Source: an uncultured virus (IMG/VR IMGVR_UViG_3300045125_000080) (lineage: Duplodnaviria; Heunggongvirae; Uroviricota; Caudoviricetes). From it: a stretch of 20,000 bases of DNA. Location: IMG/VR virus record IMGVR_UViG_3300045125_000080, one strand, 5' to 3'. Within the stretch, counting starts at the first letter, position 1; every line of letters starts with the position of its first letter. Shown piece after piece: positions 389-20,000 of the stretch. The notes beneath the pieces were generated by a model that saw only the letters and a list, made by a program, of their open reading frames with translations, searched no databases and was not told the DNA's origin. A program made the translations under genes and the position numbers.

Positions 389-395
389 AGCTTTT

Positions 396-527
396 CTATT
401 TCTTGTTAAAAATATTTCTCCAATAGAATCGTTCATAGTTTCTATAAAACTCAATACCACATATAGTGTACAGAAAAAACTCTTTAATCCTATACATACT
501 TACATTTATGTATTCTAATAATCTCAT
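396..527 (-). CDS. ~43-aa phage hypothetical protein (MRLLEYINVSMYRIKEFF...)
   Basis: ATG at 527 in the junction repeat; ends NKK* as read, or KQEIEKL* at 385 if one base is missing. Confidence 0.55.
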   Translation of the reverse strand: MRLLEYINVSMYRIKEFFLYTICGIEFYRNYERFYWRNIFNKK

Positions 528-546
528 AGCTTTTCTATTTCTTGTT

Positions 547-744
547 TTACTTCTTTGAAGCACATTTATCACAATAATCAATTCCTTTATTTGTATCATT
601 GCCATCCCAATAACAGTGCATCGCTTTTTTACACTCTGGACATCTATACATTGGTTTTGATTTTGTAACTGTATTCCATACTGATTTCCAAAATGATGGG
701 CAATCAAATAGTTTGTGTTTCCATTTTTTTATAGAGTTTTTCAT
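547..744 (-). CDS. 65-aa Cys-rich putative Zn-binding phage protein (CPEC...YCDKC)
   Basis: ATG at 744 in the junction repeat; two CxxC pairs. Confidence 0.65.
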   Translation of the reverse strand: MKNSIKKWKHKLFDCPSFWKSVWNTVTKSKPMYRCPECKKAMHCYWDGNDTNKGIDYCDKCASKK

Positions 745-2185: not shown

Positions 2186-2291
2186 TCCAAGTTTTCTTGA
2201 GTCTTTTGTATACTTTTTTCATTGTGTCGGGGGAAGACGCGGTGATGATTTGAGCCAACTTACGTAGCTTCTTTGCTCTTGTTTTTCTCAT
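2166..2291 (-). CDS. 41-aa basic micro-protein (MRKTRAKKLRKLAQII...)
   Basis: ATG overlaps the stop of 2288..2506; fills the gap to the GT9 gene. Confidence 0.55.
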   Translation of the reverse strand: MRKTRAKKLRKLAQIITASSPDTMKKVYKRLKKTWNENKSK

Positions 2292-2506
2292 TGTCTCCAA
2301 TTTATAGGTACTTGAATATTTTCTCCATTCATTTTGTTTGGATAAACTCTTATCTCATCATCGTAAAAATTGCGGACAGAACCATCTTCATAAAATACAA
2401 CCTTCCAAACTGTATTTACATCTGGGCCGTAATCTATCCACGCTATAGCCTTACCATAACCAAGTGGGGTATGAACGTCTATTCCTGCTTTTAATTCGTG
2501 TATCAT
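2288..2506 (-). CDS. 72-aa phage hypothetical protein
   Basis: Intact ORF with ATGA coupling at both ends. Confidence 0.75.
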   Translation of the reverse strand: MIHELKAGIDVHTPLGYGKAIAWIDYGPDVNTVWKVVFYEDGSVRNFYDDEIRVYPNKMNGENIQVPINWRQ

Positions 2507-3295
2507 TGTGTATTCAGTTTACCAAAGTAATAGTCAAGACTTCCCTGATGATAAAAATCATACCCATTCGGCCCTACTGGTATGCAGTTGGGAAGTTGTG
2601 GGCATATCTCCAAGATACGAGGAACTTTCAAAGCTTCGGCTATCTGATAGCAAAAACTTTGATTGCCAAGAAAGAATTTACACCCCTTAATCCATTGAGC
2701 CAGTTCATAAAAGTCATCAACCTGAAGTAACTCAAGGTCAAGATCCCACGTCTTGCAAAAGAGGTCTCTTTCTGATTGAAGTCCTGCAAAGACAATATTT
2801 TCCTGATGGGCCTTTAAAAGAAGTAATTGGTTAGATAGTTTCTGTACCGCTGGGTAAAGTTGATTATGATTTTATTATTCTCTCTTGCCTTGACATCTAA
2901 ATAGGGAACAGATAGGTCTGATGCCATTTGAGGGAAGACGTAGTTAAACCACCTATTGAGGCTTCCTCTTGGTTGATTGGTATATCTTTCTTGACGTATT
3001 AAGTCAAAGTCTATATCTACTTCTTCCCCCTTGAATACTAAAAGTCTTCTATGTAGTCTTGGGAAGATATGAGCCTGCGTAAATTATCAAACATATACTG
3101 CGACATACAGATAGGCTCGTCATATTCATTCTTAAACGGATGGATGCTGTCGGGAGTTCCCGCACCCTGCATACCTATCCTCTGGTAAACGATTCCCTTG
3201 CGTCCCGTATCTTCCCACAACTTCCTAATACCAGCCAAAAAGCTAATCAGGTCTCCAGAAGGGGAAGAAGTCTTATATTTTAAAGGATTTTGCAT
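2503..3295 (-). CDS. Second GT-B/GT9-like glycosyltransferase; frameshifted
   Basis: N-terminal SGDLISFL; C-terminal ELAQWIKGCKFFLGNQSFCYQIAEALKVPRILE resembles the GT9 'FIGxDSG..H.A.AL..P' region; TGA at 2503-2505. Confidence 0.65.
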
Positions 3296-3359
3296 ATCTT
3301 TGATACGATATTTTCGCAGCGTTTGCGAAGAGTTTTCTTCACAGCTAAATTGTTAAACA

Positions 3360-3621
3360 ATGCCTAATTTGTTTTTGGTGCAGGTTTACGGAATTGATGC
3401 TCCCGGTGGTTCTACTGAAATCTGCTGCCGCTGGTGGACAAGCAAATCTTTTTGCTTCTCAAAGCCCAATCCACGTTTACCCCACTACTCAGACACGTGG
3501 CGTAGCTCAAGTACAATGTAACGCTGTCATCGAAGTGCTTCCTCAAGGATTGAATCAAATCTCTACGAAGTACTTTACCGACAGAACTGTTGCTCAAGTA
3601 CAAGCTTTGGCTAACGCGTAA
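3360..3621 (+). CDS. ~87-aa Ala/Gln/Val-rich protein, monocistronic, possibly virion-associated; one frameshift near 3420
   Basis: MPNLFLVQVYGIDAPGGSTE joins the track ORF ending ...TDRTVAQVQALANA; own terminator follows. Confidence 0.6.
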
Positions 3622-3644
3622 TCGAATTTTCTCGATTAAAGAAG

Positions 3645-3671
3645 TCCGATCCATAGTGGTCGGATTTTTTT
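3645..3671 (+). terminator. Intrinsic terminator
   Basis: TCCGA(T)CCA-TAG-TGGTCGGA stem then T7, between convergent genes. Confidence 0.75.
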
Positions 3672-3825
3672 ATGCCAATTTGTTTCTGAGTTCTTCCAGC
3701 TCATTTTTAAGCTGGTCTAAGGATTGTTCCACGTGAAGCTTTAAGGCAGCCAATATCTTAACTTGGTCTACCACGTCAGACTTGGAAAGTTCCTTGATAA
3801 TCTTTTCAATGTTTGCTTTTGCCAT
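3670..3825 (-). CDS. 51-aa coiled-coil-like protein (MAKANIEKIIKELSKS...)
   Basis: Intact ORF translated by hand; ATG overlaps the stop of the HTH gene (TAATG). Confidence 0.65.
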   Translation of the reverse strand: MAKANIEKIIKELSKSDVVDQVKILAALKLHVEQSLDQLKNELEELRNKLA

Positions 3826-4040
3826 TAATCAATGTATTTGTTTGTGATAAAATAGGATACGAGCTGTGTGGTGTTCTTGCAATTAAACTTTGCCCTTACA
3901 AGTTGTAGCTTGTAGGCAAATGTATTTTTGTTAAGACCGACCTTTTCAGCTACCCCTTTTGCTTTCTCGCCGCTCGCCAAGAGGCGAACCCAAAGGATTT
4001 CTTCCTCTGTCGGAATGGGCGGTGTGTAGTTTTCTTCCAT
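3825..4040 (-). CDS. LuxR/GerE-type HTH DNA-binding protein
   Basis: LLASGEKAKGVAEKVGLNKNTFAYKLQLVRAKFNCKNTTQLV fits the LuxR C-terminal pattern. Confidence 0.8.
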   Translation of the reverse strand: MEENYTPPIPTEEEILWVRLLASGEKAKGVAEKVGLNKNTFAYKLQLVRAKFNCKNTTQLVSYFITNKYID

Positions 4041-4044
4041 ACTG

Positions 4045-4076
4045 CAAAGATAGGCGCTATAAAAGAAATTTACAAA
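4045..4076 (-). promoter_or_regulatory. Bacteroidota sigmaA-type promoter for the HTH gene, near-leaderless
   Basis: TTTG(4076-4073)-N20-TATCTTTG(4052-4045); ATG 4 nt downstream. Confidence 0.75.
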
Positions 4077-4091
4077 AAAATTTATATTTTA

Positions 4092-4122
4092 TTTGGTAGT
4101 CCAATTTTTATCTATATTTTTG
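4092..4122 (+). promoter_or_regulatory. Bacteroidota sigmaA-type promoter for the nuclease/heptose operon
   Basis: TTTG(4092-4095)-N19-TATTTTTG(4115-4122). Confidence 0.75.
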
Positions 4123-4163
4123 TTTAGAAATTATTTGAATAGGATAAATGATTAATTTACGGT

Positions 4164-4656
4164 ATGGGTATTGAACAGATAAGAGAATTAAAGAAACAGG
4201 CAGGACTTCCCAAGACGCCTAAAAAATATACTATCCCCAAGAAGTCAAAGAAGAAACTTAAAGAAGAAAAGGAAGAAAGAAAAGAAAGAGCAGGTGATGA
4301 TACACAGCTTGTAAAATGGTACAAGCATTGTCAAAGAGAAATGAGTGGTAATTGTTCAGAGTGTGGAAAGCCGACCAATACTAAAGTATACGAGTTGGCC
4401 ATTCATTCTATTTGCCACTTATTAGCAAAAAGAAAAACAGTAGCTCCAAGTGTAGCGTGTCACGCTCATTAACTGGATAGAGCTGTGTCCTGATTGTCAC
4501 TATAAGTTTGATAATAGTGCGTGGGAAGATATAGCGAAGTGGGGATGCTGGCCGGAGATACAAGATAGATTGATTCAGGTTTATCCAGCGATTGCAGAGG
4601 ATGAGCTTCGTCACTTCCCCGACATCGTACTAAACTATATGAATGAAAACTCTTGA
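4164..4656 (+). CDS. HNH/NinG-like Zn-binding nuclease; frameshift near 4465
   Basis: CSECG...ICHLLAK...NWIELCPDCHYKFD pattern; Lys-rich N-terminus. Confidence 0.7.
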
Positions 4657-4738
4657 CATTATAGCAACGATAGTCGGCATTATCTTTTTATATTTGGTAT
4701 ATAAAGCATTTGTTTATTCATTCTTTGATGATAAATAA
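4643..4738 (+). CDS. 31-aa single-TM micro-protein (MKTLDIIATIVGIIFLYLVYKAFVYSFFDDK)
   Basis: Intact ORF filling the gap; hydrophobic core. Confidence 0.5.
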   Translation: MKTLDIIATIVGIIFLYLVYKAFVYSFFDDK

Positions 4739-4740
4739 TT

Positions 4741-5141
4741 ATGATACGAAAAAACTGGTCTGGGTAAATGGATGCTTTGATATACTGCATCCGGGCCACT
4801 TTGAACTTTTTAGATTTGCCTCTGAACTTGGCAGTCTACACGTTGGAATAGACGCTGACGTGCGAATTAGAAAGATGAAGGGGCCGGGCCGACCAGTTAA
4901 TGACGAAGGGTTTAGAGCCGATATGCTATCTTCCCTGACATTCGTAGAAAAAGTTTACATCTTTGAAACAGATCAGGATTTAAGAGCAATAACCAAAAGA
5001 CTCAAGCCTGATATAATGGTTATAGGTGAAGAATATAAAGACAAGACTATTATAGGAGCAGAAAATGTAAAAGAGATTATATTCTTTAAAAAGACATTAG
5101 ACTCTACAACTGAAATTATTAATAAGATTAAGAATGGATAA
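4741..5141 (+). CDS. rfaE2: RfaE domain II-like heptose-1-phosphate nucleotidyltransferase (cytidylyltransferase superfamily)
   Basis: NGCFDILHPGH (HxGH), KGPGRPVN, C-terminal STTEII; start likely ATG 4741 with an indel shortly after. Confidence 0.85.
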
Positions 5142-5499
5142 AAAGCCTATTTGCACAGACGGTTGCCATATACAAAAAGGCTGGGGCAAAGAAATCGTTA
5201 TCATAAACAACGAGCTTTATTGTGGTAAGATTCTTGTATTTAAGTCTGGCTATCAATTTTCGATGCACTTCCATATTATCAAACAAGAAACGTGGTATGT
5301 AAATAAAGGCAAGTTTCAATTTAGATGGATTAATACCGAAGATGCAAGCATACATTCTATGGAATTGAATGTCGGGGAAGTCGTGACTATCCCTCGCGGT
5401 ATGCCACATCAATTAGAAGCACTTGAAGATGGAGAAATATTTGAAATATCAACACAACACTTTGATTCAGACTCGTACCGCGTATGGAAAGGAAATTAA
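5134..5499 (+). CDS. Cupin-fold sugar isomerase/epimerase-like protein
   Basis: KGWGKE...SMHFHIIKQETWYV...IPRGMPHQL...EISTQH. Confidence 0.8.
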   Translation: MDKKPICTDGCHIQKGWGKEIVIINNELYCGKILVFKSGYQFSMHFHIIKQETWYVNKGKFQFRWINTEDASIHSMELNVGEVVTIPRGMPHQLEALEDGEIFEISTQHFDSDSYRVWKGN

Positions 5500-5675
5500 C
5501 CCCTAGCTTAAAGGCTAAAGACCTTACAGTAAGAGAACACATAGCAATTAACCTGTTGCCTATGATGCTTGCTACTGCTTCAGACCTTGATGATCCAAAG
5601 GATGTCTGTGATGAGGCTATATCTATTGCTAACCTTTTAATTGAGAGGCTAAATGATGAAGAAAATATACGTTGA
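5484..5675 (+). CDS. 63-aa phage hypothetical protein
   Basis: Intact ORF overlapping both neighbours. Confidence 0.6.
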   Translation: MERKLTPSLKAKDLTVREHIAINLLPMMLATASDLDDPKDVCDEAISIANLLIERLNDEENIR

Positions 5676-5946
5676 TATTGACGGGACTATTTGTAATACT
5701 GTTGAGGGAAAATATGAGGATAGCACCCCTATTCAGGAACACATAGATAAAATTAATAATATGTATGACGCTGGTTGTTACATAGTTTACTATACAGCCA
5801 GAGGTCAGCGTAGCGGTAAAGACTATTGGATGCTTACAAACGACCAGCTTGAAAAATGGGGTTGTAAGTTTCATAAGCTTAATATGGGTAAGCCTGATTA
5901 TGATTTAATGATTTGTGATAAAACTAAACGCATCGAAGAAATATGA
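5653..5946 (+). CDS. Small HAD-superfamily phosphatase (capsule-biosynthesis-phosphatase-like)
   Basis: DIDGT motif I, YYTARG motif II, KP..D..ICDK. Confidence 0.85.
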   Translation: MMKKIYVDIDGTICNTVEGKYEDSTPIQEHIDKINNMYDAGCYIVYYTARGQRSGKDYWMLTNDQLEKWGCKFHKLNMGKPDYDLMICDKTKRIEEI

Positions 5947-6692
5947 ACTTCTTAATTATTGGGGAAAAATGTAAAGATGTATTTGTGTACGGGGAAGTCA
6001 CAAGGCTCAGTCCTGAAGCTCCTGTGCCTGTATTCAATCCTACTCGTAAAGTGGAAAATTTAGGAATGGCTGCCAATGTTTATAATAACTTATTTAATCT
6101 TATAGAAAAGAAAGCATCTTTAATCGGTCATTTTTCCAATGATAATATCATAAAAACAAGATACGTTGACGATAAGTCAAACCATTACTTTTTACGCATA
6201 GACGAAAACGACAAAACAGAGAGTATCAGGATTTCCCCCAACCTAACAAAAGTCATCCATAGTTCAGATTGCATTATTATATCAGACTACGATAAAGGTT
6301 TTATATCACTAAACGATATTTGGTCAATTTGCCAAGAAGCAAAAGAAAGTGCAGTAATTTTCTTAGACACAAAGAAGAAGTTAACACCTGTCATCTTTGA
6401 TCAGGTTGATTTCGTAAAATTCAACGAATCAGAATACAATCTCAATATTAAAAATTCAGAAGAATTTTCAAATAAGATAATAGTAACGAAAGGAGGAAAT
6501 GGAGCATACTACGATGGCGAGGACTTCCCCAGCGAGAAGAAATTAACCATTGATGTATCAGGAGCAGGAGATACGTTTTTAGCCGCATTAGCTTTCTATT
6601 TTATGACTTCCCGCGACATAAAAATAGCCATCCAAGAAGCCAATAAAGCAGCTTGCAAAGTAGTATCAGAAAGAGGAGTTTCGGTTATCTAA
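5943..6692 (+). CDS. rfaE1: RfaE domain I-like PfkB-family heptose-7-phosphate kinase
   Basis: RLSPEAPVPV, GMAANV, ISDYDKG, DVSGAGDTFLA. Confidence 0.9.
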   Translation: MNFLIIGEKCKDVFVYGEVTRLSPEAPVPVFNPTRKVENLGMAANVYNNLFNLIEKKASLIGHFSNDNIIKTRYVDDKSNHYFLRIDENDKTESIRISPNLTKVIHSSDCIIISDYDKGFISLNDIWSICQEAKESAVIFLDTKKKLTPVIFDQVDFVKFNESEYNLNIKNSEEFSNKIIVTKGGNGAYYDGEDFPSEKKLTIDVSGAGDTFLAALAFYFMTSRDIKIAIQEANKAACKVVSERGVSVI

Positions 6693-6700
6693 AAAATTTT

Positions 6701-6732
6701 TTTGGAAATAGAAAATTGGCGATGTATATTCG
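6701..6732 (+). promoter_or_regulatory. Bacteroidota-type promoter for the replication operon
   Basis: TTTG(6701-6704)-N20-TATATTCG(6725-6732); shares TTTGGAAATAG with the 12571 promoter. Confidence 0.7.
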
Positions 6733-6736
6733 TGTC

Positions 6737-6849
6737 GCTTAATCTGAATTTAATGAAATCAATTAAAAATATATTTCAAAATACTGGCTCGTCCTGTGAC
6801 GTTTCCTTCTCTTCATTGAGTTCGGATTAAGCAGCGTTATAGGCGAGCC
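6737..6849 (+). ncRNA. Structured 5' leader with two long interleaved helices and a 25-codon uORF (6753-6830)
   Basis: 6737-6757 pairs with 6812-6832 (21 bp, 3 G-U); 6786-6801 pairs with 6835-6849 (15 bp, 2 G-U, 1 bulge). Confidence 0.6.
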
Positions 6850-6865
6850 TACTTAATTTTATTTT

Positions 6866-7066
6866 ATGGCAACAATGAACTCTTTATTAATCTCTCCAAG
6901 TAGAGACCAAGCACAAGTTTCCATTTGTGTTAAATTATGTGGTTCTATACTGATAGAATCATCATATAATGAATGTCCTGTTTTTATTGAAATAGAAGCC
7001 GAAGATTGGGATTCAGTTAAAAAATTCATTGATTCAGAACTTAAAAAATTGAACGAAAATGGCTAA
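6866..7066 (+). CDS. 66-aa phage hypothetical protein
   Basis: Intact ORF overlapping the initiator start. Confidence 0.65.
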   Translation: MATMNSLLISPSRDQAQVSICVKLCGSILIESSYNECPVFIEIEAEDWDSVKKFIDSELKKLNENG

Positions 7067-7631
7067 AGATCCCGCATTTCTTTTTTATCCCAATGATTGG
7101 CTTGGAGGCACTCTTGGGATGACTTTAGAGCAAAAAGGAGCTTACATAGAGCTTCTTATGCTTCAATTTAATAGAGGTCATATGACCAAAGATATGATAG
7201 GTCACGTGTTAGGTCAAGAGGGTGGTCGAATTTTTGGTCAAATTAAGAACAAATTCCAAATTGATGAAAATGGCGATTATTTTAATGCCCGACTTGAAGA
7301 GGAACAAAACAAACGTAAGTCATTCGTACTCAGTAGGAAAAACAACAAAGAAGGCAAAAATCAATACACAAAAAGAAGGTCATATGAGAGGTCAAATGAC
7401 CTCACATATGGAAAATGAAAATGAAAATAGAAATATAAGTGAATATAGAGTTAGGGTAAGGGGGTATGGGGGAAAGGGGAAGAGAGCTGCTTCGTTTGTT
7501 GACTTGGAAAAAAATCTTGCCTACTTCACGGAGGATGGCACAGTCTTTCAGGAGCTTGGTTCGGAACAACGACAACTCTTGGAAAAAAGGAATTGAAATA
7601 CTACGAAATTTTTGAAGGTGAAATTTTTTAA
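7059..7631 (+). CDS. DUF1376/YdaU-like replication initiator; frameshifts near 7370 and 7590
   Basis: MAKDPAFLFYPNDWLGGT..MTLEQKGAYIELL N-terminus; lies directly before the primase-helicase. Confidence 0.75.
7176..7430 (+). repeat. Iteron-like 12-bp-phased GGTC(A) repeats inside the initiator gene; candidate origin
   Basis: GGTC at 7176, 7200, 7212, 7224, 7236 and at 7378, 7390; palindrome GGTCATATGACC at 7176-7187; GAAAAT repeats at ~7411-7428. Confidence 0.55.
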
Positions 7632-7640
7632 AAACTGAAA

Positions 7641-9545
7641 ATGTACTACGACCAACTTACAAAACTTGGAATTAGACTTCGGAAAAGAAGTGGGCAAGAA
7701 AAAACAACTTGCCCAAATTGCTCTGCTGGGCGGAAAAAGAAAACTGATCCTTGCCTTTCGTAAACATTTCTCAAGGCGATTACAACTGCCACAACTGCGG
7801 CTGGATGGGGAATGTGAGAACTTTTGTCAAGAAAGAAAATTTTAAAAAATACGAAAAACCAAGTCAAGAAATGCTCAAAAACATTGAGCTGAATGATAGG
7901 ATAAAGTTGTTTTTGAAGGTCGGGGAATAAGTGAGGCTACGTTGCAAAAATTCTTTATTCACGGCAAGGAAGAGTGGATGCCACAATCTCAGAAAAAACA
8001 ACGCTGCATCGTCTTCCCTACATACGCGACAATGAAATCGTAAACGCAAAATATCGCGATGGGAAGAAAGGGTTCAAACTTGTGAAGGATGCTGAATTGA
8101 TTTTTTCGGGATGCAAACACTTCAGGGTAGAAGATGTGCAATCATCGTGGAAGGTGAAATTGACGCGCTTTCAGCATACGAGGTTGGTTTTGGTCGGGAC
8201 TACGAACCGATTTGCAACGAGGATGGGGAAGTTGTGGAACACGAACTTGGCAGATTTGCGGTTCTTTCGGTTCCAAACGGGGCAAGTAAGGGGAACCAAC
8301 GGATGGAGTATTTGGACAACTGCGCCGAGTACTTGGAAACGGTTGAAGAGTTCATCATCGCAACCGACAACGATGCGCCCGGTCAAGCCCTTCGGGATGA
8401 GTTAATCCGCCGTTTAGGCGTGGAAAAGTGCCGAACTGTCAGGTGGGAAATCCTAAAATCGCACCAGACGCACGGAAAACGGCCCAAAAATCGCACCAAA
8501 AGATTTTAATGAGGTATTGTGCCACTTTGGAAAAGAGGCCCTTAAATCGCTTGTATTGAGTTCGCAGGAAGTTCCGGTGGATGGGATATTTTATGTCGAA
8601 GATATTTTTTCAACGATGTTGGAGAACTTTGAAAGGGGTGTTCAGATAGCCCCTCCGACAAGAATTGATGTGCTTGATGAGTACTTTAGGTGGAAGAAAG
8701 GAGATATAAATTTATGCACCGGATATGCTAATGCTGGTAAGTCTACTTTTATGCTTCAGTTGATGCTTGTTAAGAGTATTTGGGATGGATGGAAATGGGC
8801 GGTATTTAGTCCAGAAAATTTTCCTGCTTATGATTTTTATGATGATTTAGTAGAGATGTATGTTGGCAAGTGGAAAACGGATATGAAAAAGAAGAGTATG
8901 TAGAAGCCTGTGAATTTATTGGTCAGCATATATTCTTTGTGTATCCTGAAAACGAACACGATATAGAATCAGTACATAATAAGTTTCGTTATTTGATTTT
9001 AAAGAAAGGATTAGATGGTGTAATGATTGATCCATTTAATCAACTTGATTCAATGCAAAAGGCTTATCAAAGAGAAGACCAATATTTATCAAGTATATTA
9101 AAGGATATAAAAAGATTTGCATTACTAAATGGCATCTGTTATAACATAATAGCTCACCCAAAAAGTCCAAGTTATAGAGAAGATAAGTCTTTGCCTGTAG
9201 CGGATATGTATGATTTAGCTGGTGGTGCTATGTGGGGTAATAAAATTGATAACATACTTTCTTATTATAGACCAAGATTTCACGAAGACAAGAATAGTAA
9301 AGAAGTAGAGATATGGGTTCAAAAAATTAAAAGAAAAAGAACAGGCGGTCAGCTCGGTCATTGTAATTTAATTCTTGATTGGAGAACGAAAAGATTTTGT
9401 CATCCTGTATCAGGTCAAAGATTATTGTGATATTAAAAGAGCAAGAGTTGTCACATCTTCCCACAACCCAGATAACATAACACAAGGAGAGATATCTAAT
9501 AATTGGCTACCTTATAAGGATGATAGTACTGAAGCACCTTTTTAA
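7641..9545 (+). CDS. T7 gp4/Twinkle-like primase-helicase (Zn finger + TOPRIM + SF4 helicase); several frameshifts
   Basis: CPNC...CHNCGW; VEGEIDALS; ATDNDAPG; Walker A GYANAGKS; MIDPFN; IAHP; ends ...DDSTEAPF*. Confidence 0.9.
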
Positions 9546-9579
9546 TGTAGGGGAAGATATAATACACAAACACTAACCA

Positions 9580-10046
9580 ATGATAATTCACAAAACACAC
9601 ACGCACCGCTAAGACTTCCCCAACTACTAATTAAACCCAAGCTATTAGCTTACAGAGTAGGCTTTACAGAATCTTGTAGGTATGATTTAGGAATGAGAGA
9701 CCAAGGAGATATTAATAAACTATTTGGAGTGGGATATTTTCCCTCACACCACGAAAACTCTGTACGAGTAGGATGGAACTATGATATAGTATCAGGAAGA
9801 ATAAACATATTTGCTTATTGGTATGTAGGGGGAAAACGTGACTGGCAATACCTAAGAAGCGTAGACATAGGAGTAATGTGTTATTTTAAAATGTATATTG
9901 ACGATGATATGCATAGATTAGATATTGCAGGAAGAAACTACCGAGTAGATGTTCATAGCACGCCTATCTGCTATTTATTAAGACCATACTTTGGTGGAAA
10001 TAGAACCGCACCACACGATATTGTAATTGATATAAAAAAAGTATAA
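9580..10046 (+). CDS. Phage hypothetical protein (~155 aa); frameshift near start
   Basis: Track ORF 9693..10046 extends upstream (FTESCRYDLG) toward ATG 9580. Confidence 0.65.
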
Positions 10047-10276
10047 TGATTAAAACATTAAGAAGGAATGTTACTGAAGAAAAAGTAGAACGGACTAAAA
10101 AATTAATTAAACTTGGACGTTCATTAAGAGAGGCTGCAAAAGAAGTGGGTATTAGTTATTATTCTGCTTGGCATATTGCTAAGGGAAGTTATGACAATGA
10201 AATTAAACTTGACAGCATCTTTAAGAAAGAAGAAAGAAATAATTATTTTACGTGGAAAAACTTTGAGGTATTTTAA
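10046..10276 (+). CDS. HTH DNA-binding protein
   Basis: GRSLREAAKEVGISYYSAWHIAKG. Confidence 0.7.
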   Translation: MIKTLRRNVTEEKVERTKKLIKLGRSLREAAKEVGISYYSAWHIAKGSYDNEIKLDSIFKKEERNNYFTWKNFEVF

Positions 10277-10516
10277 TGGCAATAGTAAGAAACATACAAA
10301 ACAATAATCTATACCGTTATCTTGGATGATAATAAATATCGAAACATTATGACGGGAGTAGAAGGAGAGATACCAGAAGAAATGGCTCGTAAGATATTTA
10401 AGATTAACCTAGAGATGACGGAGCTGTGCGAGAACTTCCCCAACGTAGAAAAATTAATATTTGCATTAAAGCTTAAAATGGATAAAAATGAAAACACCGA
10501 TGCAAGAACTTCTTGA
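10276..10516 (+). CDS. Phage hypothetical protein (MAIVRNIQNNNLYRYLG...); one frameshift
   Basis: TAATG coupling at 10276; joins track ORF 10322..10516. Confidence 0.6.
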
Positions 10517-10703
10517 ATGGATTAAAGAGAAGTATGAAGTAAACATACCTGAATCAAAGCAAAATGAATACTTGACTCAAGAACGTAGTCATATTATTCG
10601 TGCGTGGGAAGATGGCGCACTCGCTAATGAAACAGGTATTGGATTTATTGACGGAACAATATATTTTGAAAATACATATTTAAACGATGCCGGCTCTCGT
10701 TAA
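10488..10703 (+). CDS. 71-aa phage hypothetical protein (MKTPMQELL...YFENTY)
   Basis: Intact ORF within the operon. Confidence 0.65.
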   Translation: MKTPMQELLEWIKEKYEVNIPESKQNEYLTQERSHIIRAWEDGALANETGIGFIDGTIYFENTYLNDAGSR

Positions 10704-10714
10704 CCGGTTTTATT

Positions 10715-11261
10715 ATGTCTGGTCTTATTAAAAAACAAGAAGGGGTTACACTTAAACATTAAGGAAGGGAAACTCGTTACCAAGAAAAATGGTGTAGTGG
10801 AAAGTTATGATGGCGTTCAGGGAGTCATTCAAAAGATTGACTTCGTAAAGGACGAGTATCAGGGCAAAACGTATGAGAAAGCGTCTATCCACATTAACAA
10901 TGTAGGGAAACGTATATCCTACAGATGCACGTAGATAGCGGTTACTTTAGAAACTTCTGCAACGCATTAAAGAACGGAAAGCCAAGAGAAGAGGTCTACA
11001 TTCAGCCGTCTTACAAGAAAGATGACAACGGAAAAACTTCTGCTGGTTGCTTTATTTCTCAGGGTGGTAAATTCTTAAAGCACGCCCACACAAAGGATAA
11101 TATGGGAGATCTTCCCCCGCTTGAAAAAGTAACCTTCAAGGGAGAAACAAAGTACGACAACAGCAAGCAAATTGAGTACTGGAAAAAATGGATTGCCGAA
11201 ACATTTAAAGAAGGAATTGAAGCCAGATGCTGAAGAGGAAGAAACCGACCTTCCGTTTTAA
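10715..11261 (+). CDS. Putative single-stranded DNA-binding protein; frameshifted
   Basis: Joined frames MSGLIKKQEG...; acidic tail EEEETDLPF* typical of SSBs; replication-module context. Confidence 0.65.
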
Positions 11262-11433
11262 TAAAGGGATCTATATCATTACTTGACTTCGATTTTAAGT
11301 CTTGTCTATTTTGCTCAGTATGCTCACATACATAACAGAAATGAGATTATAGCAAGGTGGCGAAGCTTGGTAGGTAAGAAAATGGATAGGATGTATATTC
11401 AGATTGCTCCTGACTATACACCTTCAAGAGTAA
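11261..11433 (+). CDS. Possible small hypothetical protein (...YAHIHNRNEIIARWRSLVGKKMDRMYIQIAPD...), ends uncertain
   Basis: Protein-like frame between SSB and terminator; start codon not visible. Confidence 0.35.
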
Positions 11434-11459
11434 AGCCGAGGAATTAACCTCGGCTTTTT
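11432..11459. terminator. Bidirectional intrinsic terminator
   Basis: AAAGCCGAGG-AATTAA-CCTCGGCTTT perfect stem between convergent units. Confidence 0.85.
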
Positions 11460-11522
11460 ACTGCCATTACTTCCCGAAACCCGACCAAAGGCCCGAATTA
11501 ATAATTAATTAGGCAGTAATAG

Positions 11523-11589
11523 CGACCAGTAGGGGACTCGAACCCCTATTTACCAGAGGAGGCGTGTTTGCTCTTACACTCAATTGGTC
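11523..11589 (-). tRNA. tRNA-like element with shortened anticodon arm; isotype not assignable
   Basis: Acceptor GACCAAT/ACTGGTC (1 mismatch), D stem GTGT/ACAC, T arm AGGGG-TTCGAGT-CCCCT; only 67 nt. Confidence 0.55.
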
Positions 11590-11596
11590 TATAAAA

Positions 11597-11737
11597 TTAG
11601 TTTCCTTTTCTAAACTCAAGGCCGATAAAAACCTTGGTACTATCCCTTAATACCTTGCCATCCAGATATTGCTTCTGAACTGTTACGCAGGATGTTAGGG
11701 AAGATATGACGATGATTGCGATGATTAACTTCTTCAT
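11597..11737 (-). CDS. Small lipoprotein (MKKLIIAIIVISSLTSC...); 3' end uncertain
   Basis: Signal peptide with LTSC lipobox; TAACTTTG promoter element at 11750-11743. Confidence 0.65.
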   Translation of the reverse strand: MKKLIIAIIVISSLTSCVTVQKQYLDGKVLRDSTKVFIGLEFRKGN

Positions 11738-11747
11738 ACCTACAAAG

Positions 11748-11904
11748 TTACTCCATAATTAGGATATAGTGAGCAGTCTTTTCCCCTGTTTTATAATAGA
11801 CCTTGACGCCCGGAAGCGTCTTACCTTGCTGTAAAAGACGCTGGATATACTGTCTTGAAACGCCTCTTAGCTTGGCGTACTGAGGTTGCTGACATTACTT
11901 TCAT
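11748..11904 (-). CDS. Small excisionase-like HTH protein; frameshift near start
   Basis: QYAKLRGVSRQYIQRLLQQGKTLPGV; TATATTTG at 11916-11909 just before the ATG. Confidence 0.6.
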
Positions 11905-11924
11905 ACCGCAAATATATGAAATGG

Positions 11925-11938
11925 TTGCTAATTAGCAA
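11925..11938. promoter_or_regulatory. 14-bp perfect palindrome TTGCTAATTAGCAA; candidate operator
   Basis: Overlaps the spacer/-33 region of the HTH gene promoter. Confidence 0.45.
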
Positions 11939-12405
11939 TGTTCGTTATATCGGTCAAAAAAGGCTCTTTTGTACGTTTTAACGAACACTGCCTTTTTACG
12001 CTTCCGAAAATGTCGGGCTTGCCTTAAAAAGGGTTTCGACCAAAACTTATACTATCAGTACATAAATCTGTATAAATAAACTTCAGCTATCTGTTAAATG
12101 CTTACTATGCTAGCTAGAAAATTATAGTCAATCAAATATCAATCTTTTATATTTAAAAATGCATAATCTTACAAAACTTGTTGTTAAACACATCTTCCCC
12201 AGAACACATCAGCACCATATACAACATAAACCCCCCGCGCTGACTGAGTGCGAGGATCTTCCCGCCACACCTAACCAAACAATGGCAAAGATCAACCAAG
12301 AGGACAAAGACCAGACCAACCCCGCCAACCTGCGCGAGGACTTCCCGCACAACATCACTAACAGGCAAAAAAACAGGGGACGGGGTAAGTATAAACCGCA
12401 ACCCC

Positions 12406-12490
12406 AAAAAACCCACCCCCGCGGAATCCGCGAGGGTACCCTCCAAGAGTAAGCACGCGACAAAAACCCAGCCCTAAGAATAGGGCCGGG
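12406..12490 (-). terminator. Two tandem GC-rich hairpins, each followed by a U-run on the minus strand
   Basis: Stems at 12467-12490 and 12415-12437; mismatches are G-U only on the minus strand. Confidence 0.6.
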
Positions 12491-12570
12491 ACACAAACAA
12501 AGAAAACACACTTGCCTACAAAGTTACATTATCCATCACCACGACTTCCCCAAACTTTTTATAAAATAAA

Positions 12571-12602
12571 TTTGGAAATAGTAAAACATCGTATTATATT
12601 TG
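12571..12602 (+). promoter_or_regulatory. Bacteroidota sigmaA-type promoter for the recombination operon
   Basis: TTTG(12571-12574)-N20-TATATTTG(12595-12602). Confidence 0.8.
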
Positions 12603-12638
12603 CTCTGGCCAATAATAAGCAAGCATTAGGTTTAAAAC

Positions 12639-12669
12639 GGCCTGTATTTCTATACGGGCCTTCTTTTTT
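12639..12669 (+). terminator. Terminator-like hairpin in the leader of the recombination operon
   Basis: GGCCTGTAT-TTCT-ATACGGGCC then TTCTTTTTT. Confidence 0.55.
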
Positions 12670-12681
12670 AAAACACACACA

Positions 12682-13351
12682 ATGACACAAACAACACTTG
12701 ATCTATTAAGGGATGCGGAGCCGTTATTTGCCCGCATACTTGAATTTGAGGCAAGCCATTCCTCTCTTCCTGATGTACTGGAAATGATTGACAAGATGGA
12801 GCCGCCTGCCTCTTGGGTGATAGAACTTCCCTCACAGATAAAGAAGGAACTTACAAGACAATCCCTCTGGATGTAATGGAGGCCGCTGTAAAGCGTATAT
12901 TTGGCACGAGAATCGCTTATCTCAAGTATGAGTGATCCAATCATCATTCAGGACAGGAGCGGCAAATTTTCGGCCTACAATGAGCCTCTCCGTACCAGGT
13001 ATCTGGAGACTTTGGATTTCTTCATCTAACCGGAGTGGCCTCTGTGACTTCCCCGAACATACAAGGACTAGAACTAGCCACCCCAAAAGCAGCAGTCAAT
13101 GGCAGTAAAGAACGCCATCAAGAAGCTCGGAGGACTCTTTGGTAAATACTTGAACCGGGTAGAGGACGAAATCATCGAGGAACCACAGATGAACCTTGAA
13201 GAAAAGATGGAATCACTTCCCGAAGCAATAAAAAACACCCAAACTATCGAAGAACTTAAGACCTACCGAAAGACTGGTATACTCTAAGAGTGTTTCACAC
13301 GAAATTCAGGGTAATCTATGAAGAACAATATAGAAATTAAAGACAAAATAA
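12682..13351 (+). CDS. Putative Rad52/Sak-like single-strand annealing protein; several frameshifts
   Basis: C-terminal (A)MAVKNAIKKLGGLFGKYLNR resembles the Rad52/Sak 'ALKRAA..FG..LY' helix; next to an exonuclease. Confidence 0.6.
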
Positions 13352-13376
13352 TAGTAAACACTTAAAAAATACTTAG

Positions 13377-14226
13377 ATGAACTGGGATAATTTACTCGTT
13401 AGATGCTCTTGTCTAGGCAAAATTATGACACCAACCAAGGGTTCGGTCATTACGGACAAGCAATTGGAGGAACTTGATAGGCTATCAGATCTTCCCAAGC
13501 GCACAGAAAAACAAGAAGTAACCTACCAAACACTACTGGCAAAGAAAAACGCACCACCAGAACTATCCGACACCGCAAAAAGCTACCTCAAGGAGCTTAT
13601 ACGTCTTCCATAAATACGGAAAAGAAACCGTTGGCGGATCAGAAAGGAGCAAGTACACTATGAAAGGCATTGTCCGTAGAGGACAACAGCATCAAACTAC
13701 TGAGCAGACTCGATAATGCCTACTATTCCAAGAACGAGGACTTCTTTAAAAACGACTTTATCATGCGGAACCCCCGATATTATGGTGAAATCGGAGAACA
13801 TATTCACCAAAATCATTGATATCAAGTCCTCTTGGGACGCCGCAAGCCTACTCAGCAACCTTGGGCAACCCTTAAACAGCAACTATTACTACCAAATGCA
13901 GGGTTATATGGCCCTAACAGGAGCTACCGAAGCCGAAGTCTGCTACTGCCTTGTCTCGATGCCAGATGAAATCATAAATTCCGAGAAAAAACGCATCTAC
14001 TACCTACTAAATCCGGCAACAGAAGACAACAAAGAGTACAAAGATGCCATCCAAAAGCTTGAGGACAATATGACCTTTGACGAAATCCCCGAAGGCGAGA
14101 GGCATTATCAAGTTCAAGGTAGAGCGCGATGACGCTGTAATTCAGTCTATCTACGAAAAAGTTCGTAGTTGCAGACAATGGATGTCCGAATTTGAAGAAA
14201 TGCACACCAGAATCAACAAAAATTGA
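13377..14226 (+). CDS. YqaJ/lambda-exonuclease-like PD-(D/E)xK nuclease; frameshifted
   Basis: RCSCLGKIM; GTPD...IIDIKSSW; YYYQMQGYMALTG. Confidence 0.85.
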
Positions 14227-14290
14227 CTTATTTGCACAACATATAGTGCAAAAACTTCCCCAACAGTCAAGTAATCCTTGACAACTCGCT

Positions 14291-14334
14291 AAAATGAGCG
14301 ATAAGTTAAGTAAAAATGAGCGACAAGTTGAGTA
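14291..14334 (+). repeat. 22-bp tandem duplication spanning the resolvase start
   Basis: AAAATGAGCGATAAGTTAAGTA / AAAATGAGCGACAAGTTGAGTA (2 mismatches). Confidence 0.8.
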
Positions 14335-14790
14335 AAAAAGTAATTTTAAACATTACTCCACAGACAAACATCAGAACAACGCAGGGTGATCGAGTATTTT
14401 TCCGAATTCCAAGAAATAAATTACGCCCTGCTGGACTAAAAGGCTACTCCGAATAGAGAGATACAACAACTACAAAGTAGAATTACTCACCGAAGCCAAG
14501 AAAAAAGGCTTTGTTGTTCCCGCTGCCGGACTTTCCATAACATTTTACATCCCCTGCCCTGAAAGTTGGCCTCAAAAAAGAAAAAAGCACACCACGGAAA
14601 GCTTCACCAGTCACGTCCGGATATCGATAACATAGGTAAGGGATTTTTTGACTCTTTGCTAGTCGAGGATAAGTACATCGCGAACATTACGCTCACCAAA
14701 AGATGGGTTGATTTTCCTCAAGGTTGGATTGAGTGCCTCATCTTCCCCGTAGACGAAACCATAGAAATCAAGGAGATACCAATAAAGTAA
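14316..14790 (+). CDS. rusA: RusA-like Holliday junction resolvase; frameshifted
   Basis: ITFYIPCPESW...HQSRPDIDNIGKGFFDSL..ED..I matches the RusA DxDN..K...D pattern. Confidence 0.85.
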
Positions 14791-14808
14791 TCTCTTTTTT
14801 ATTGCGCT

Positions 14809-14836
14809 ACTTAACATAATATTTATTATAGGAATT
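14809..14836 (-). other. dif-like XerC/XerD site AATTCCTATAA-TAAATA-TTATGTTAAGT (mirrored at 15186-15213)
   Basis: 11-6-11 layout; right arm 10/11 identical to the E. coli XerD arm TTATGTTAAAT; left arm resembles the ACTTCCTA(T/G)AA XerC arm of Firmicutes dif. Confidence 0.8.
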
Positions 14837-17800
14837 TATCTACGAAACATTTCGTAATAGACTTGTTTGCCAATACTCTGTGCAAGAATCGTGTTCTGTG
14901 AGTATATATACTAATATTATATTTTTGCCTAATATGTAAGTTATTGATTTTCAGTTATATGCAATAATTTTATATGTGTAACTGATTGATTGTCAACCTG
15001 TTATAAATGCAAGCATTTATAACAGGTTGACAATCAATCAGTTACACATATAAAATTATTGCATATAACTGAAAATCAATAACTTACATATTAGGCAAAA
15101 ATATAATATTAGTATATATACTCACAGAACACATTCTTGCACAGAGTATTGGCAAACAAGTCTATTACGAAATGTTTCGTAGATAGATTCCTATAATAAA
15201 TATTATGTTAAGTAGCGCAATAAAAAGAGACTGTCCGACGATATTCTATGGTTGGATCTACGATGTATCGACGCTTGAGGAAAATCAACCCGGTGACTTG
15301 TATTCGGTGTAGCATCCTCAGCCAAAGGATCAATCCCTCGACCGAACGTTATCGGTAGCAATGACTGGTGGCTTTTCCGTGTGTGCTGTGTTGAGGCCAA
15401 CTTTCAGTAGATGCTAAATGGTATGAGTCCGGCAGCTGAACAAAGCCCCTTGCTTCGATGCCAATTGCGTTCGAGGTAACGCTTTAGCCCAGCAGGAGCG
15501 TGGTGATCTCGGAAGTCAGCTCTCGATCGCCCTGCGTGACTGTGTCTGTGTGGGTGTCATGTTTAAAACCACTTTTTTGCTCAACTGTGGCTCATTTTTG
15601 CACTAACTTATCGCTCGATTTGCTACGAGTTATCAGGATTCTGACTGTTGAAGCGCTTGCACTAATGTTGATATGCAATATAGAAGTCTAGAATTTTTGT
15701 AGGGTGGACATCCGACGGCTACAGGCTTTTTTTTCGTAGATAAAATACACAGGCTGATGTCGCCTTCGAAGTTTTCGGCATAAATAGAACGAGTCACAGC
15801 GTCTGCTCGACAGCTTTGAACTGATCATGTCTGTTGCTGCGAGATTTCATCAGTATCATGAGCCCAAACTCAAGCTAGCGTGGCACATCTTATGATTGCA
15901 TCAGGTGCGCAAGGCTCGACAGCAGACGCTTTTTCGGCCTCCGCCGCCGGCTCCTGTTAGGGCCATATAGCCCGCGCAAAAATTTGGTAGTAATGGTTGC
16001 TGTTCAAGGAGTGTAGAATTTGTAAACCACGACAGGTACTTGATGTCAGCGATTCTTTGCGTGCACTCCATTTCACTATGCACCGGGAGTTCGTCGTTTT
16101 AAAGAAATCGCATTCTTGGGTGTGCAACATGTGCATTATAGACCAGATCGAGCCAACTTCCAGTGAGTTTGATGCTGTTGTCCTCTGCGGGAGATGCCTT
16201 CATAGTGTACTATGCTCTGATCCGCCAACCTTCTTTCCATTATGGAATTACATGCAAGCCGCCTTGAAGTGCGCCCTATCGAGTGTTTGGCGGAGCGACT
16301 GTCTCTGTGCGGTAACAAACTGGAGAATCTGATGAAAGCCTATCAAGTTGTCCTCCAATTGTCCCTGTGCATACTAGAGCGTAGCTGTAGAGTGTCCCAG
16401 AATGCATCCAACAGTATTTCAGACAGTGTTTGCTATATTTCGATAGATACCTGAATCTCGTGAAAACACTCTGTGAAGTAGTACACCTTCGGCAAGCTAC
16501 TTCGATATCGGGATTTGGAGTATGTTTATGCAGCTCGGGAAATTGCCATTGCTTTCTTCAAGAATTCATCTGTGGTTTACTCGATGATTTCGTCGCTCTA
16601 CCCGGTTTCGAAGTCCCCGCCAAGAGTCACTCCGAGCTACTGACGGCGTTCGCTGCTCTTTGACTGTTGTGCAGTGTAGTCACGCTGTATGACTGAGGGA
16701 AGTCACGACACCACGACAGTACTCCGAGCTACTTGCACAGACTTATCGCTGTACGTCGAGAGAAAATCTCACTGCCCCCAAAAAATCTGCAATTGTGATG
16801 ATTGAGATTCTCTCTCTCTTGAATTACAAAAATACTGCCAAGCCGCACAAAGACCCATGCGGCATACCGACATACAGTGACAGAGTGCGCGTTTCTTTTT
16901 ATCTGTGAGAGCACGCAAGATGCGAGGCGCTCCGTGCCATGTACATCCGGAGGGAGAGGAGGAGCTACTACTCAAAATTCGAGTATGCAGATTTGGCAGA
17001 AAAACCCACTAGTACGAAGCTCCCAATCGTCGTTTGAAATAGCATAAATTGTGTGTGTTTTAAGAAAAAAAAAAGAAAGGCCCGTAGCTCAAACACCGCA
17101 GTGGCCATTTGCCCCTAATAACTAGCGGCCCCGGCCCAGATGCAAGCATGTAGCGAGACTGATATTTTCCAAACTCATTTTTTATAAAAGTTTGGGAAAG
17201 TCGTGAGTGGATTAATGCGGCGTTCAGGGAACATGTGTGTTTTCTTTGTTTCCCGGCGTGACTGGATGCGGAGTCTTGCGCGAGAGTGACTGTGATTCCC
17301 TTTTAGCCTGTTGGGGATTCCCCGCGGGATCGCTATGCTGTACCCTTCGTGCCAACCCTCTTTGTGCCTGATTGTGACGTTCCCGGCAGGAAGCCATGAA
17401 GATAACAGTCACTTGGCCTGCTCGGTTGGCATCGCACTCGGTCAGCGCCGCCGGGCCCTGAGTATACGTGTGTTCGGGGAGGTTGTGGTGTTTGGCTGGC
17501 AAGTTTTTGTAACAGGTCACTACCTTTTTGGATATAAGAAGATTGATTTTTGAAATTAATTATATCATATTGGGTATAGTAGAAGCATTTTGACAAATCC
17601 CAATAAAAAACATTTTCAGTCGTCAGAGGATTTCGCGGCTCAACTCGGATTGAAATCCGAATTGCGACAGAATTTGTCACGTTTTTTGCTACAAGCTGAC
17701 TTTCGGAAACACCGTACTAATGTAAAGTTTGTTGCTTGTTCATTTTTACGTTCACGTGACTTGAGGCATTTTGAGCTGTAGTTGAAATCGCGACAGTTGA

Positions 17801-20000
17801 GCGTGTACGAGATCTTGTACTTACTAGTATGTTTTGTCGCATTTTTAAACAAATTTGGGGCATTTGTCAGAACATTTTTTCGGGCGGAGCATTTTCGGAA
17901 GTAGCAAAGTCGTCGTATTTTGAAAGAGAGAGCGTGAAGTCAGCCCCAGTAATCCGATAAAGGAGGCGGCGCATAAAAAAAATTTTCGCCCGATGCTAAG
18001 CAGGCATTTAGCTGAATTAGCAGCCATTTATCGCGAATAGTATTGCGGTCATGCAAGTGTACAGCAAGCCCAAGAAGGCTTCCAGAACAATGCTATCCCA
18101 GCGATCGTTACAGCAAAGATGCTCAGCGTCAAGGAGTCTGTTACCAAAGCAAGAGGGAAAGACTATGCTCATTATGATCGATTATGGAATAACACTTTGT
18201 AGGTATAACAAGTTAATCATCGCAATCATCATATCTTTCCTCTATGCCGTACAAGCAATACTCGAGCTACAAATATGCCAAGGTATTAAAGGATAGTATC
18301 GGAAACCTTGAGAGATTTAGAAAAGGAGGCTATAGATAGGCGCGCGGCAGACCACATAGGTGAGCAAACACGCACTCGTTTCAGTCCCCACTGCAGTCTC
18401 ACCTGCTGAAATTAATTGACCAATTCAGAGCTACTGTCGGGTTTCAGGAAACATTGGACGGCAAGACACAGGGGTTGAGGGATTCACTCGGCTTCACTCT
18501 TGTAGTCGGGAATTTGTTATCCTATCCGTTTTCTTACCTACCAAGAAAGCTCCACTTGCACCTGTATGGTCATTTCTGTTATGCATGACGACGTAAATAG
18601 CAGGGTAAGTCAAAGTCAGATAATTGTTATAGATCCTTCATTAAAATGGTCGGTTTCGGTTTCTCTAATCAGAACAAATCTGGCATTCCACGATCCATTT
18701 CTTTCCGGTATACCCTTGGTCGTCGCTGTTTCTCCAACTCTATTCTATCGAATTTAGCGAGGAGATCTCCCATGTCCATCGCTGTTGTGGATTAACAAGG
18801 AGTTTGCCGCCCTGGCAAATGAGCGACCGGCAAGGAAATTTTTCCGTTTTGTCGTCTTTTCTCTGTAAAGGGAGGCTGAACATATCAGATCTCTCTTCTG
18901 ATATTTAGCAGCTCGCGTTTAACTAATACTTGTGCAACAGTTTCGTAAACGTCGTGAGCTATGCGTTTCCCACCGTGGTAAGTGTGGATTCACTTTTCTC
19001 ATACGTTCGCCCTACTCGTCGTACTTTCCGACGAGTCGATCTTCTGAGTGATGACTTCCTGAGCGCGCTCATAACCATACCCGCACGCCATTTTTCTGAA
19101 CTGTAGCGGCATTTCCCTTCACTGTAATGTTTAAGTAAGTAACCCCTTACAATTTTTAGACCAGACACTCTTCGCGATTGACGAAAGCGGGAAAACGTGC
19201 TTCAAATATGCATTTTCAAATATAATGTTCCGTCAATAAATCCAATGCCTGATTTCATTAGCGAGGTGCACATCCCACGCACCGTTGACTGCGTTCATTT
19301 GCTGTTCGTAGGCATGTTTACTTCATGCTTCTCTTTAATCGAAATTCGTTGCAATCGTGTGTTTCATTTTTTATCCATTTAAGCTTTTATGCAAATGGTG
19401 AATTTTTCTACGGCGGAGTACTACTCTTACAGCTCATCGTCTAGGTTAATCTTAAATCATCTTACAGTACATTTCTTTCTGGTATCTCTTCCTTCACACT
19501 TCCCCGTCATATCGGTATTTGCATCGCAAGATAGCGGTATAGATTATTGTTTTGTATGTTGCCGTTAATACCTCCGAGTTTTCCACGTAAAATAGTTATT
19601 TTTTTCTTTCTTTCAAGTCTTAAGATGCTGTCATTGCTGTCCCTATAACAACTATGCCAAGCAAGTATAATAGCCCGCTGCTGCAGCCTCTCTTAATGAA
19701 CGTCCGAGTTTGAATTGTTACGAGTCCGTTCCTCTTCAGTAACATTCACTTCTTTAATGTTTTAATCATTAAACACTTTATATCAATTACAGTATCGTGT
19801 TGGTAGTTACCGAAGCAGTAGGTCGTAATAAATAGCGAGATAGTGTAATTTATCTACTCGGTAGTTTCTCCTGCGTAATCTATGCATATCATTTAAAATA
19901 ACATTACTCCTATATCTACACTTCTTAGGTATGCCAATCATTTATACCAATAAGCAAGTATGTTTATTCTTCTGATTATATGTCATAGTTCCATCTACTC

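Follow-up and report, generated by a model that had tools for sequence, protein, structure and literature searches.

A fold-back beside a RusA gene

The 20,000-nucleotide (nt) stretch of DNA analysed here, referred to as the window, belongs to an uncultured virus of the Caudoviricetes (IMG/VR record IMGVR_UViG_3300045125_000080) and carries a gene for a RusA-family Holliday-junction resolvase (14326..14790, + strand) as the last gene before a point at which the sequence turns back upon itself. The centre of symmetry lies at 15011|15012 (no strand assigned) and reads TGCA|AGCA, where relatives have TGCA|TGCA. Arms of 120 nt (14891-15010 and 15013-15132) are 100% complementary with two nucleotides (AA) between them, and are continued by arms of 94 nt (14796-14889 and 15133-15226) that are 99% complementary; when the combined arms are aligned, 215 against 214 nt, they give 213 matches, one mismatch and one gap. 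The resulting clean palindrome of 431 nt (14796..15226, likewise without a strand) consists of the terminal non-coding region and its read-through, and when folded as single-stranded DNA it reaches -232 kcal/mol (z = -47), which was equalled by none of 100 shuffled sequences. There is no adapter-like insert, nor are there extra bases, at the centre of the window. The distance from the RusA-like stop (14790) to the turn is 221 nt, and the G+C content of this segment (14791-15011) is 26%, compared with 38% over positions 1-15011. A first-pass annotation of the same DNA had described a turn-back at 15011/15012 through an AA loop (TGC-AA-GCA) with no adapter insert, placed in AT-rich non-coding DNA about 220 nt past the RusA-like stop, and both statements are borne out by recomputation of the arms, centre, distance and base composition.

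The RusA gene of the window is in a single frame only for its C-terminal 74 codons (14566-14790), and this fragment matches the Pfam RusA family at E 5.6e-5. Intact relatives of 154-175 amino acids (aa) match Pfam RusA at E 2e-13 to 7e-12 and phrog_140 at E 6e-20. The bit scores against PF05866 are 24.2 for the window fragment, 46.5 and 51.2 for the relatives L004 and L005, and 41.7 for the related genome G020, all of which pass the curated cut-off of 22.8. An alignment of seven RusA sequences contains the invariant Asp and Glu/Asp columns, as judged from positions that we take to correspond to those of E. coli RusA. An AlphaFold model made from the seven sequences has a predicted local distance difference test score (pLDDT) of only 45.7, too poor for a fold search, and no PDB entry was matched when the RusA alignment was used for a profile search.

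Beyond the clean palindrome, the second arm (15227..20000, - strand) reads through the strand complementary to 9766-14795, with many errors. When 15012-20000 (4,989 nt) is reverse-complemented it can be aligned to 9766-15010, its positions 1-1041 falling on 9766-10916, and outside the clean zone 4,774 nt correspond to 5,030 nt, a ratio of 0.949 in keeping with the earlier description of this arm as error-rich and about 5% shorter. The switch from clean to noisy sequence beyond 15226 is abrupt. Across the 5,810 alignment columns of the noisy zone, 3,588 (about 62%) match, 406 are mismatched, 1,036 are missing in the second arm and 780 are extra in it. The second arm is the complementary strand of the same DNA and not additional genome.

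The first arm itself contains about 1% single-base insertions or deletions (indels): in 6 kb, contigs of four public sequencing runs concur in departing from the window at 12 listed and a further 54 unlisted places, and a primase-helicase that is 636 aa long in L004 is split in the window into four open reading frames (ORFs) at 7974-9430. The single-base indels, together with genes that are split here and intact in relatives, indicate that the window is a long-read assembly. Inverted duplicates read in nanopores have been described to give a shorter, base-skipping second arm, as their arms pair again once past the pore and so speed the passage of the strand (PMC7229812). We propose that the second arm of the window is poorly base-called because its arms re-annealed in this way.

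Recurrence of the turn in related contigs

Relatives of RusA were sought in IMG/VR with the alignment of seven RusA proteins; 155 were found, and the best 80, lying on 79 contigs, were kept. RusA is the terminal gene in all 80, and none of their contigs extends further than 400 nt beyond RusA unless it turns back. In 13 of the 80 the turn comes 99-214 nt past the RusA match and has perfect arms of 50 nt or longer, and the other 67 end 0-173 nt past the match. A perfect turn of 10-49 nt is found at the contig end in 8 of these 67, compared with 0 of 3,350 random cut points, so that perfect palindromic centres occur in 21 of the 80 RusA relatives overall. Going by IMG identifiers, at least 13 data sets contributed fold-back contigs.

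Four of the IMG/VR exonuclease/RusA relatives (L001, L002, L005 and L009) are perfect palindromes over the whole contig, with 0 mismatches, and a metagenome collection supplied a fifth fold-back case (L235). All five independent sequences have the perfect centre TGCA|TGCA. Both arms of L009 align with window positions 14336-15005, and its centre corresponds by homology to 15011. With the perfect TGCA|TGCA of these relatives for comparison, the ‘AA loop’ of the window is better described as a single central mismatch in a spacer-less palindrome. As for the forms of the tip, the centre of the window has AA, TT was not seen directly, and one k=31 contig of run X9 stops exactly at 15010; this single contig end fits an A/T branch at 15011 and is a hint of flip/flop forms. 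Centres vary by subclade (TGCA|TGCA, TTACA|TGTAA, TAATT|AATTA and TTATA|TATAA) and are always spacer-less and AT-rich. In addition, three contigs stop exactly 63 nt past the centre. By our own derivation this is how a k=127 de Bruijn graph behaves at a self-complementary centre, implying that reads span the centre in short-read libraries.

The first-pass annotation had considered a library or amplification fold-back to be at least as likely as a telomere, and had named relatives that run through the turn into unique sequence as evidence that would speak against a genome end. Such run-through is seen in 0 of 10 exonuclease/RusA relatives and in 0 of the 80 RusA relatives, and we reject an artefact of this kind at a chance position, since short-read contigs from at least 13 data sets turn back at the equivalent point. 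The turn is a real, conserved genome end.

Up to 35% of sampled words of the window were found in 20 run entries from eight studies, with labels that are mostly freshwater and other aquatic metagenomes. Sequencing depth over the putative terminal repeat discussed below was mixed, being higher in runs X8 and X1 and not in X3 and X9, and was dropped as evidence; coverage drops near the turn in X1 and X8 are evidence neither way and were not used. A DNA search of GenBank phages with 11000-15011 returned no match, and the exact 21-mer adjoining the turn had no match in viral contigs.

Terminal repeats, neighbouring genes and the dif-like site

The relatives are tailed phages, encoding a large terminase (phrog_6681, E 6e-81) and a portal protein (phrog_6547). 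In one of them, G020 (66,344 nt), RusA is found at both ends of the genome, pointing outward, inside perfect inverted repeats of 1,295 nt, whose only genes are RusA and one small ORF, the exonuclease and annealing protein being absent from them; IMG/VR classes this genome as having inverted terminal repeats (ITRs) and as 100% complete. In four other long contigs, a spot located 1.5-4.4 kb inward from the RusA end recurs in inverted form at the far end, over 99 nt in G016 (100%), at least 69 nt in G019 (100%), 98 nt in G017 (94%) and 106 nt in G006 (95%), where the element lies at 2425-2528 and 70462-70567. No inverted match was found for the far end of G018, nor between the right and left ends of G011. 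In the window, a C-rich element (12190..12520, + strand) precedes the recombination genes and has 53% G+C, with C making up 34% of its sense strand. Contigs of the relatives G8, G9 and G10 break at the G/C-rich element, and the outer ends of L001 and L002 are located there too. An Rfam search of 1-15300 found nothing, so the C-rich element does not correspond to a known RNA. This element probably forms the inner border of an ITR, and the repeat of the window probably extends from about 12.2-12.5 kb to 15.011 kb, taking in the annealing-protein, exonuclease and RusA genes.

This order, annealing protein, exonuclease and then RusA, is that of the clade to which the window belongs. The gene for the Rad52-like single-strand annealing protein (approximately 12581..13345, + strand) is broken by 1-nt indel errors in the assembly; it was placed by blastn homology to L004:6812-7576 (254 aa) and has a weak match to Pfam Rad52_Rad22 (E 1e-3). 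The PD-(D/E)XK recombination exonuclease (13377..14226, + strand) is split into ORFs at 13377-13613 and 13716-14132, with consistent 1-nt indels relative to the contigs of four runs. Its relatives are 71-82% identical, and the intact 281-aa exonuclease of L004 (7617-8462) matches phrog_5715, annotated ‘exonuclease’, at E 1.4e-38. The joint between exonuclease and RusA is variable: from 14288 onwards runs X3, X8 and X9 share the same different sequence, and two runs skip 14253-14309. An optional small gene is found further upstream, where a 230-nt segment (10043-10274) with a 76-codon ORF (10046-10276) is cleanly skipped by contigs of all four of four runs.

A dif-like site, ACTTAACATAA-TATTTA-TTATAGGAATT (14809..14836, + strand), has two 11-nt arms around a 6-nt spacer, matching the pattern of chromosomal dif sites, and a mirror copy with one mismatch at 15186-15213. 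It lies 175-202 nt before the turn, in agreement with the distance of about 175 nt reported previously. A comparison of the window with L009 and L007 shows conserved arms around a variable 6-nt spacer. At least 21 of the 80 relatives have such a site, in the same orientation, in their terminal regions, a count that is a lower bound as many contigs stop short of the site. In bacteria, ACTTAACATAA-N6-TTATAGGAA occurs in at least 120 genome contig stretches, with one match per listed stretch, mostly from Chitinophagales or, by family, mostly from Chitinophagaceae, Saprospiraceae and other Bacteroidota, and one match is at 2.06 Mb of a 4.36-Mb complete chromosome. We infer that the matched bacterial sites are the functional dif sites of the hosts. 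Judged by its sequence, the phage site truly mimics dif and thereby hints at the host, which on this basis is probably a Chitinophagales-type member of the Bacteroidota. No Xer gene is found among the ORFs of G006 and G020.

Two small conserved sub-terminal palindromes follow the dif-like site (14841..14911, + strand), TACGAAA-CA-TTTCGTA at 14841-14856 and a GTGAGTATATATAC block at 14898-14911. Nearer the tip, 20 nt before the turn, lies the conserved motif TAACTGATTGATT (14979..14991, + strand; mirror copy 15032-15044). In the form TAA(C/G)T(G/T)ATTG(A/G)TT this motif is found 19-26 nt from the turn in the window, L009, L005, L001, L002 and L235, and it is degenerate in G011. A strict scan for the two-armed motif returned only the four known palindromes, and no second kind of end bearing the motif was found; looser scans gave chance matches among those listed, with L235 as their sole yield. 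Two candidates for further cases were discarded, L100 as an excerpt of the contig of L005 and L516 as a chance match inside a gene.

Several further observations concern the ends and gene content of this group. G006 (L337:4566-5681, - strand) and G8 carry, close to the RusA end, a gene for a metallophosphoesterase that matches Pfam Metallophos and phrog_221 and, weakly, a DNA-repair exonuclease family; in G7 this gene is inverted and located near the opposite end. Genome ends appear, from these gene positions, to exchange modules, and an SbcD/Mre11-like hairpin nuclease would bear on hairpin ends. G020 carries a NinG-family gene (L682:6955-7500, - strand) beside its two RusA copies, as well as a primase (BT4734-like N-terminal domain plus PriCT_1), an SSB, and weak crAss-like and SU10-like structural matches. 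In the window, 832-1263 (- strand) and 4710-6692 (+ strand) hold a phage sugar-nucleotide gene set that is also present in relatives, comprising a fragment of a family-9 glycosyltransferase (heptosyltransferase-like), a cytidylyltransferase-like protein, a cupin, a HAD-like phosphatase and a PfkB-type kinase; the set resembles an ADP-heptose-type pathway that would modify the host surface. The closest relative of the window, G007 (L341-L344; 95% over 6.1 kb), is labelled ‘provirus’ by IMG/VR. No host flank is seen at its far end, which is collinear with G006, and the label may stem from host-like sugar genes.

Putative hairpin ends and comparison with known systems

The first-pass annotation saw no protelomerase in the window, and this statement can now be extended to 15 related records, including five with a completeness rating of at least 90% (G005, G006, G016, G017 and G020): the ResT/TelK catalytic domain (PF16684) is found in 0 of the 15 at E<=1, a search that a very divergent enzyme might escape. 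Pfam searches of the 91 ORFs of G006 and the 90 ORFs of G020 revealed no integrase, protelomerase or DNA polymerase, to which PHROGs adds none, and there is no tyrosine-recombinase domain among these 181 ORFs.

The reading that we favour, and think reasonably probable, is that the window derives from a freshwater tailed phage whose genome is linear and about 66-70 kb long, with the turn as its physical end, and that this genome has ITRs and either hairpin ends or their replicated head-to-head junctions, with RusA as the putative resolvase. The end itself is most likely a covalently closed hairpin, or else a head-to-head junction arising from replication of the hairpin. Each end would fold back through the spacer-less AT-rich palindrome, and a long read would pass down one strand, round the turn and up the other strand. 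Replication through the hairpin would generate a perfect palindromic junction that could extrude as a cruciform, whereupon a RusA dimer, encoded beside the junction, would cut the four-way junction symmetrically, and a ligase would seal the nicks to give two hairpin ends with no need of a protelomerase. The terminal position of RusA in every relative strengthens the idea by association, and we infer RusA to be the resolving enzyme.

A number of observations weigh against this reading. The border of the repeat in the window's own lineage is deduced from relatives and not observed, and the contigs of the four runs are all short, with no listed piece spanning the turn. Taken alone, the one fold-back in the window might come from a nanopore that read template and then complement at an open end. 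The contigs of 59 of the 80 relatives simply end near RusA, as an open end would also give. The sister-clade genome G012 has plain ITRs of 122-133 nt, without RusA and without a fold-back. RusA is common in phages, so that it is position only that argues for its role here, and the second Asp of the PD-x-D-N motif is Ser in 3 of the 7 aligned RusA relatives. No phage ligase is recognised. The terminase that is present would have to package a hairpin-ended genome. G012 (L474-L477) is itself close kin with a different type of end, its terminase being 56% identical and its genome of 62,942 nt rated 100% complete.

Hairpin ends could also be real and be formed by an unrecognised telomere resolvase, protelomerase-like or another site-specific enzyme, RusA then being an ordinary debranching enzyme that merely happens to be the last gene. 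Protelomerase target sites have a perfect palindromic centre with a conserved motif nearby, which is also the arrangement in the relatives, with their motif 19-26 nt away, and most ORFs of G006 and G020 are without a family assignment. However, neither the ResT/TelK domain in the 15 records nor a tyrosine-recombinase domain among the 181 ORFs could be found, and the sequence of the centre varies by subclade while RusA stays terminal throughout, and we regard a hidden resolvase as unlikely. Somewhat more doubtful still are open ends (blunt, cohesive or protein-capped) with inverted repeats, for which the fold-backs would be by-products of head-to-head joining in the cell or the library, combined with a nanopore template-then-complement read. 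The contigs that just stop near the end, the k=31 contig of X9 that ends right at the centre, the self-complementary tetramers there, which are possible cohesive ends, and the plain short repeats of the sister clade are all in line with it. Yet the joining of two ends of one rare phage in a metagenome library is limited by concentration and improbable, whereas the junction is carried by 21 of the 80 relatives as well as L001, L002 and L235, from at least 13 data sets. Moreover, a left-end-to-right-end joint, the commoner outcome for cohesive ends, is present in no contig, the centre of the window is free of adapter and extra bases, and a protein-priming DNA polymerase was not found among the ORFs of G006 and G020.

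It is very improbable, in our estimation, that the turn is the centre of a large internal perfect palindrome, with back-to-back repeats in a circular or permuted genome. By our reasoning the short-read assembly graph would be identical to that of a hairpin end, and the gene directions of G006 would form one continuous leftward block if its ends were joined. Kilobase-scale spacer-less palindromes are, however, expected to be unstable in bacteria, and the long read helps to separate the two cases in a way that short-read graphs cannot. Once past the turn and the likely repeat border, it follows its own flank, reverse-complemented, for some 2.4 kb rather than entering far-end genes; 19777-20000 matches the 95%-identical relative G7 at 60781-60507, reversed, which is the near end of G7 and not its far end. 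Insofar as the border deduced from relatives is correct, the molecule behind the window would be a hairpin or a head-to-head dimer of one end, and not a circle with an internal palindrome. Next to no credence is left for a chimera formed by chance in the library, during amplification or in assembly, at some arbitrary point of one contig. The window is certainly a noisy long-read contig, with about 66 consistent 1-nt indels in 6 kb relative to short-read contigs and with split genes, but independent short-read contigs turn at the homologous point and no relative runs through it, and this account is already refuted. We also discarded a T7-like packaging hairpin and a short inverted repeat priming snap-back after a break, each of which should leave a continuing path or a spacer at the centre; neither is seen.

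A broader proposal, which goes beyond the favoured reading of hairpin ends and which we offer tentatively, with doubt outweighing belief, is that a widespread freshwater clade (at least 155 IMG/VR contigs) combines ITRs with covalently closed hairpins in the absence of a protelomerase, a tip-encoded RusA cutting the extruded junction and a dif mimic tying the ends to host Xer. If true, a strategy of poxviruses and rudiviruses would exist inside the Caudoviricetes, in tailed phages of common freshwater bacteria and with a different resolvase family. RusA would acquire a defined role beyond debranching, and the question would arise how terminase packages a closed-ended genome. For viromics, such genomes would give palindromic contigs, false ‘duplications’ and contig breaks that invariably fall at one gene, with hairpin ends and an internal palindrome being indistinguishable in short-read graphs.

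A prior description of such phages was not found in open-access papers and preprints. By large terminase, the nearest cultured relatives are 28% identical and comprise 88 records, 68 of Flavobacterium phages and 15 of Cellulophaga phages. In Flavobacterium phage vB_FspP_elemo and the Cellulophaga podophages, unlike here, the terminase is found at varying positions and on either strand in the records, as expected for circular assembly, and we know of no report of hairpin ends in these podophages. To our knowledge, hairpin ends in phages are known only from the N15-type phage-plasmids with a protelomerase. N15, phiKO2, PY54 and VP882 (protelomerase TelN/TelK) resemble the present system in having a perfect palindromic centre and the gene of the enzyme adjoining the site. 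They differ in that the ResT/TelK domain is absent from all 15 related records here, in that an uncut joined site leading into different far-side sequence is seen in 0 of the 80 relatives, and in the kilobase ITRs of the present system.

The combination of hairpin ends, ITRs and a junction resolvase is found in poxviruses, in their large-DNA-virus relatives and in the archaeal rudiviruses. Poxvirus telomeres have ITRs and hairpin ends, and their concatemer junctions are cut by the RuvC-like resolvase A22. The likeness to the phages described here lies in a linear double-stranded DNA genome, ITRs that turn back at the tips, a Holliday-junction resolvase, the lack of a protelomerase and a proposed extruded palindromic junction. 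In contrast to poxviruses, these are tailed bacteriophages with a terminase and portal, the resolvase is of the RusA family, encoded inside the repeat next to the tip, rather than RuvC-like, and the centres of the phage relatives are perfect palindromes as opposed to the long mismatched flip/flop loops of poxviruses. The rudiviruses SIRV1 and SIRV2 share hairpin ends, inverted repeats and the same proposed resolvase scheme (PMC3157427, PMC5062984). In SIRV2, where this was demonstrated in vitro, the resolvase Hjr introduces nicks into the four-way hairpin junction that links genome copies, after which the nicked hairpins are closed by ligase (PMC3157427). Rudiviruses differ in using an Hjc-like resolvase, where RusA is the putative enzyme here, and in having another virion type and a host from the archaeal domain.

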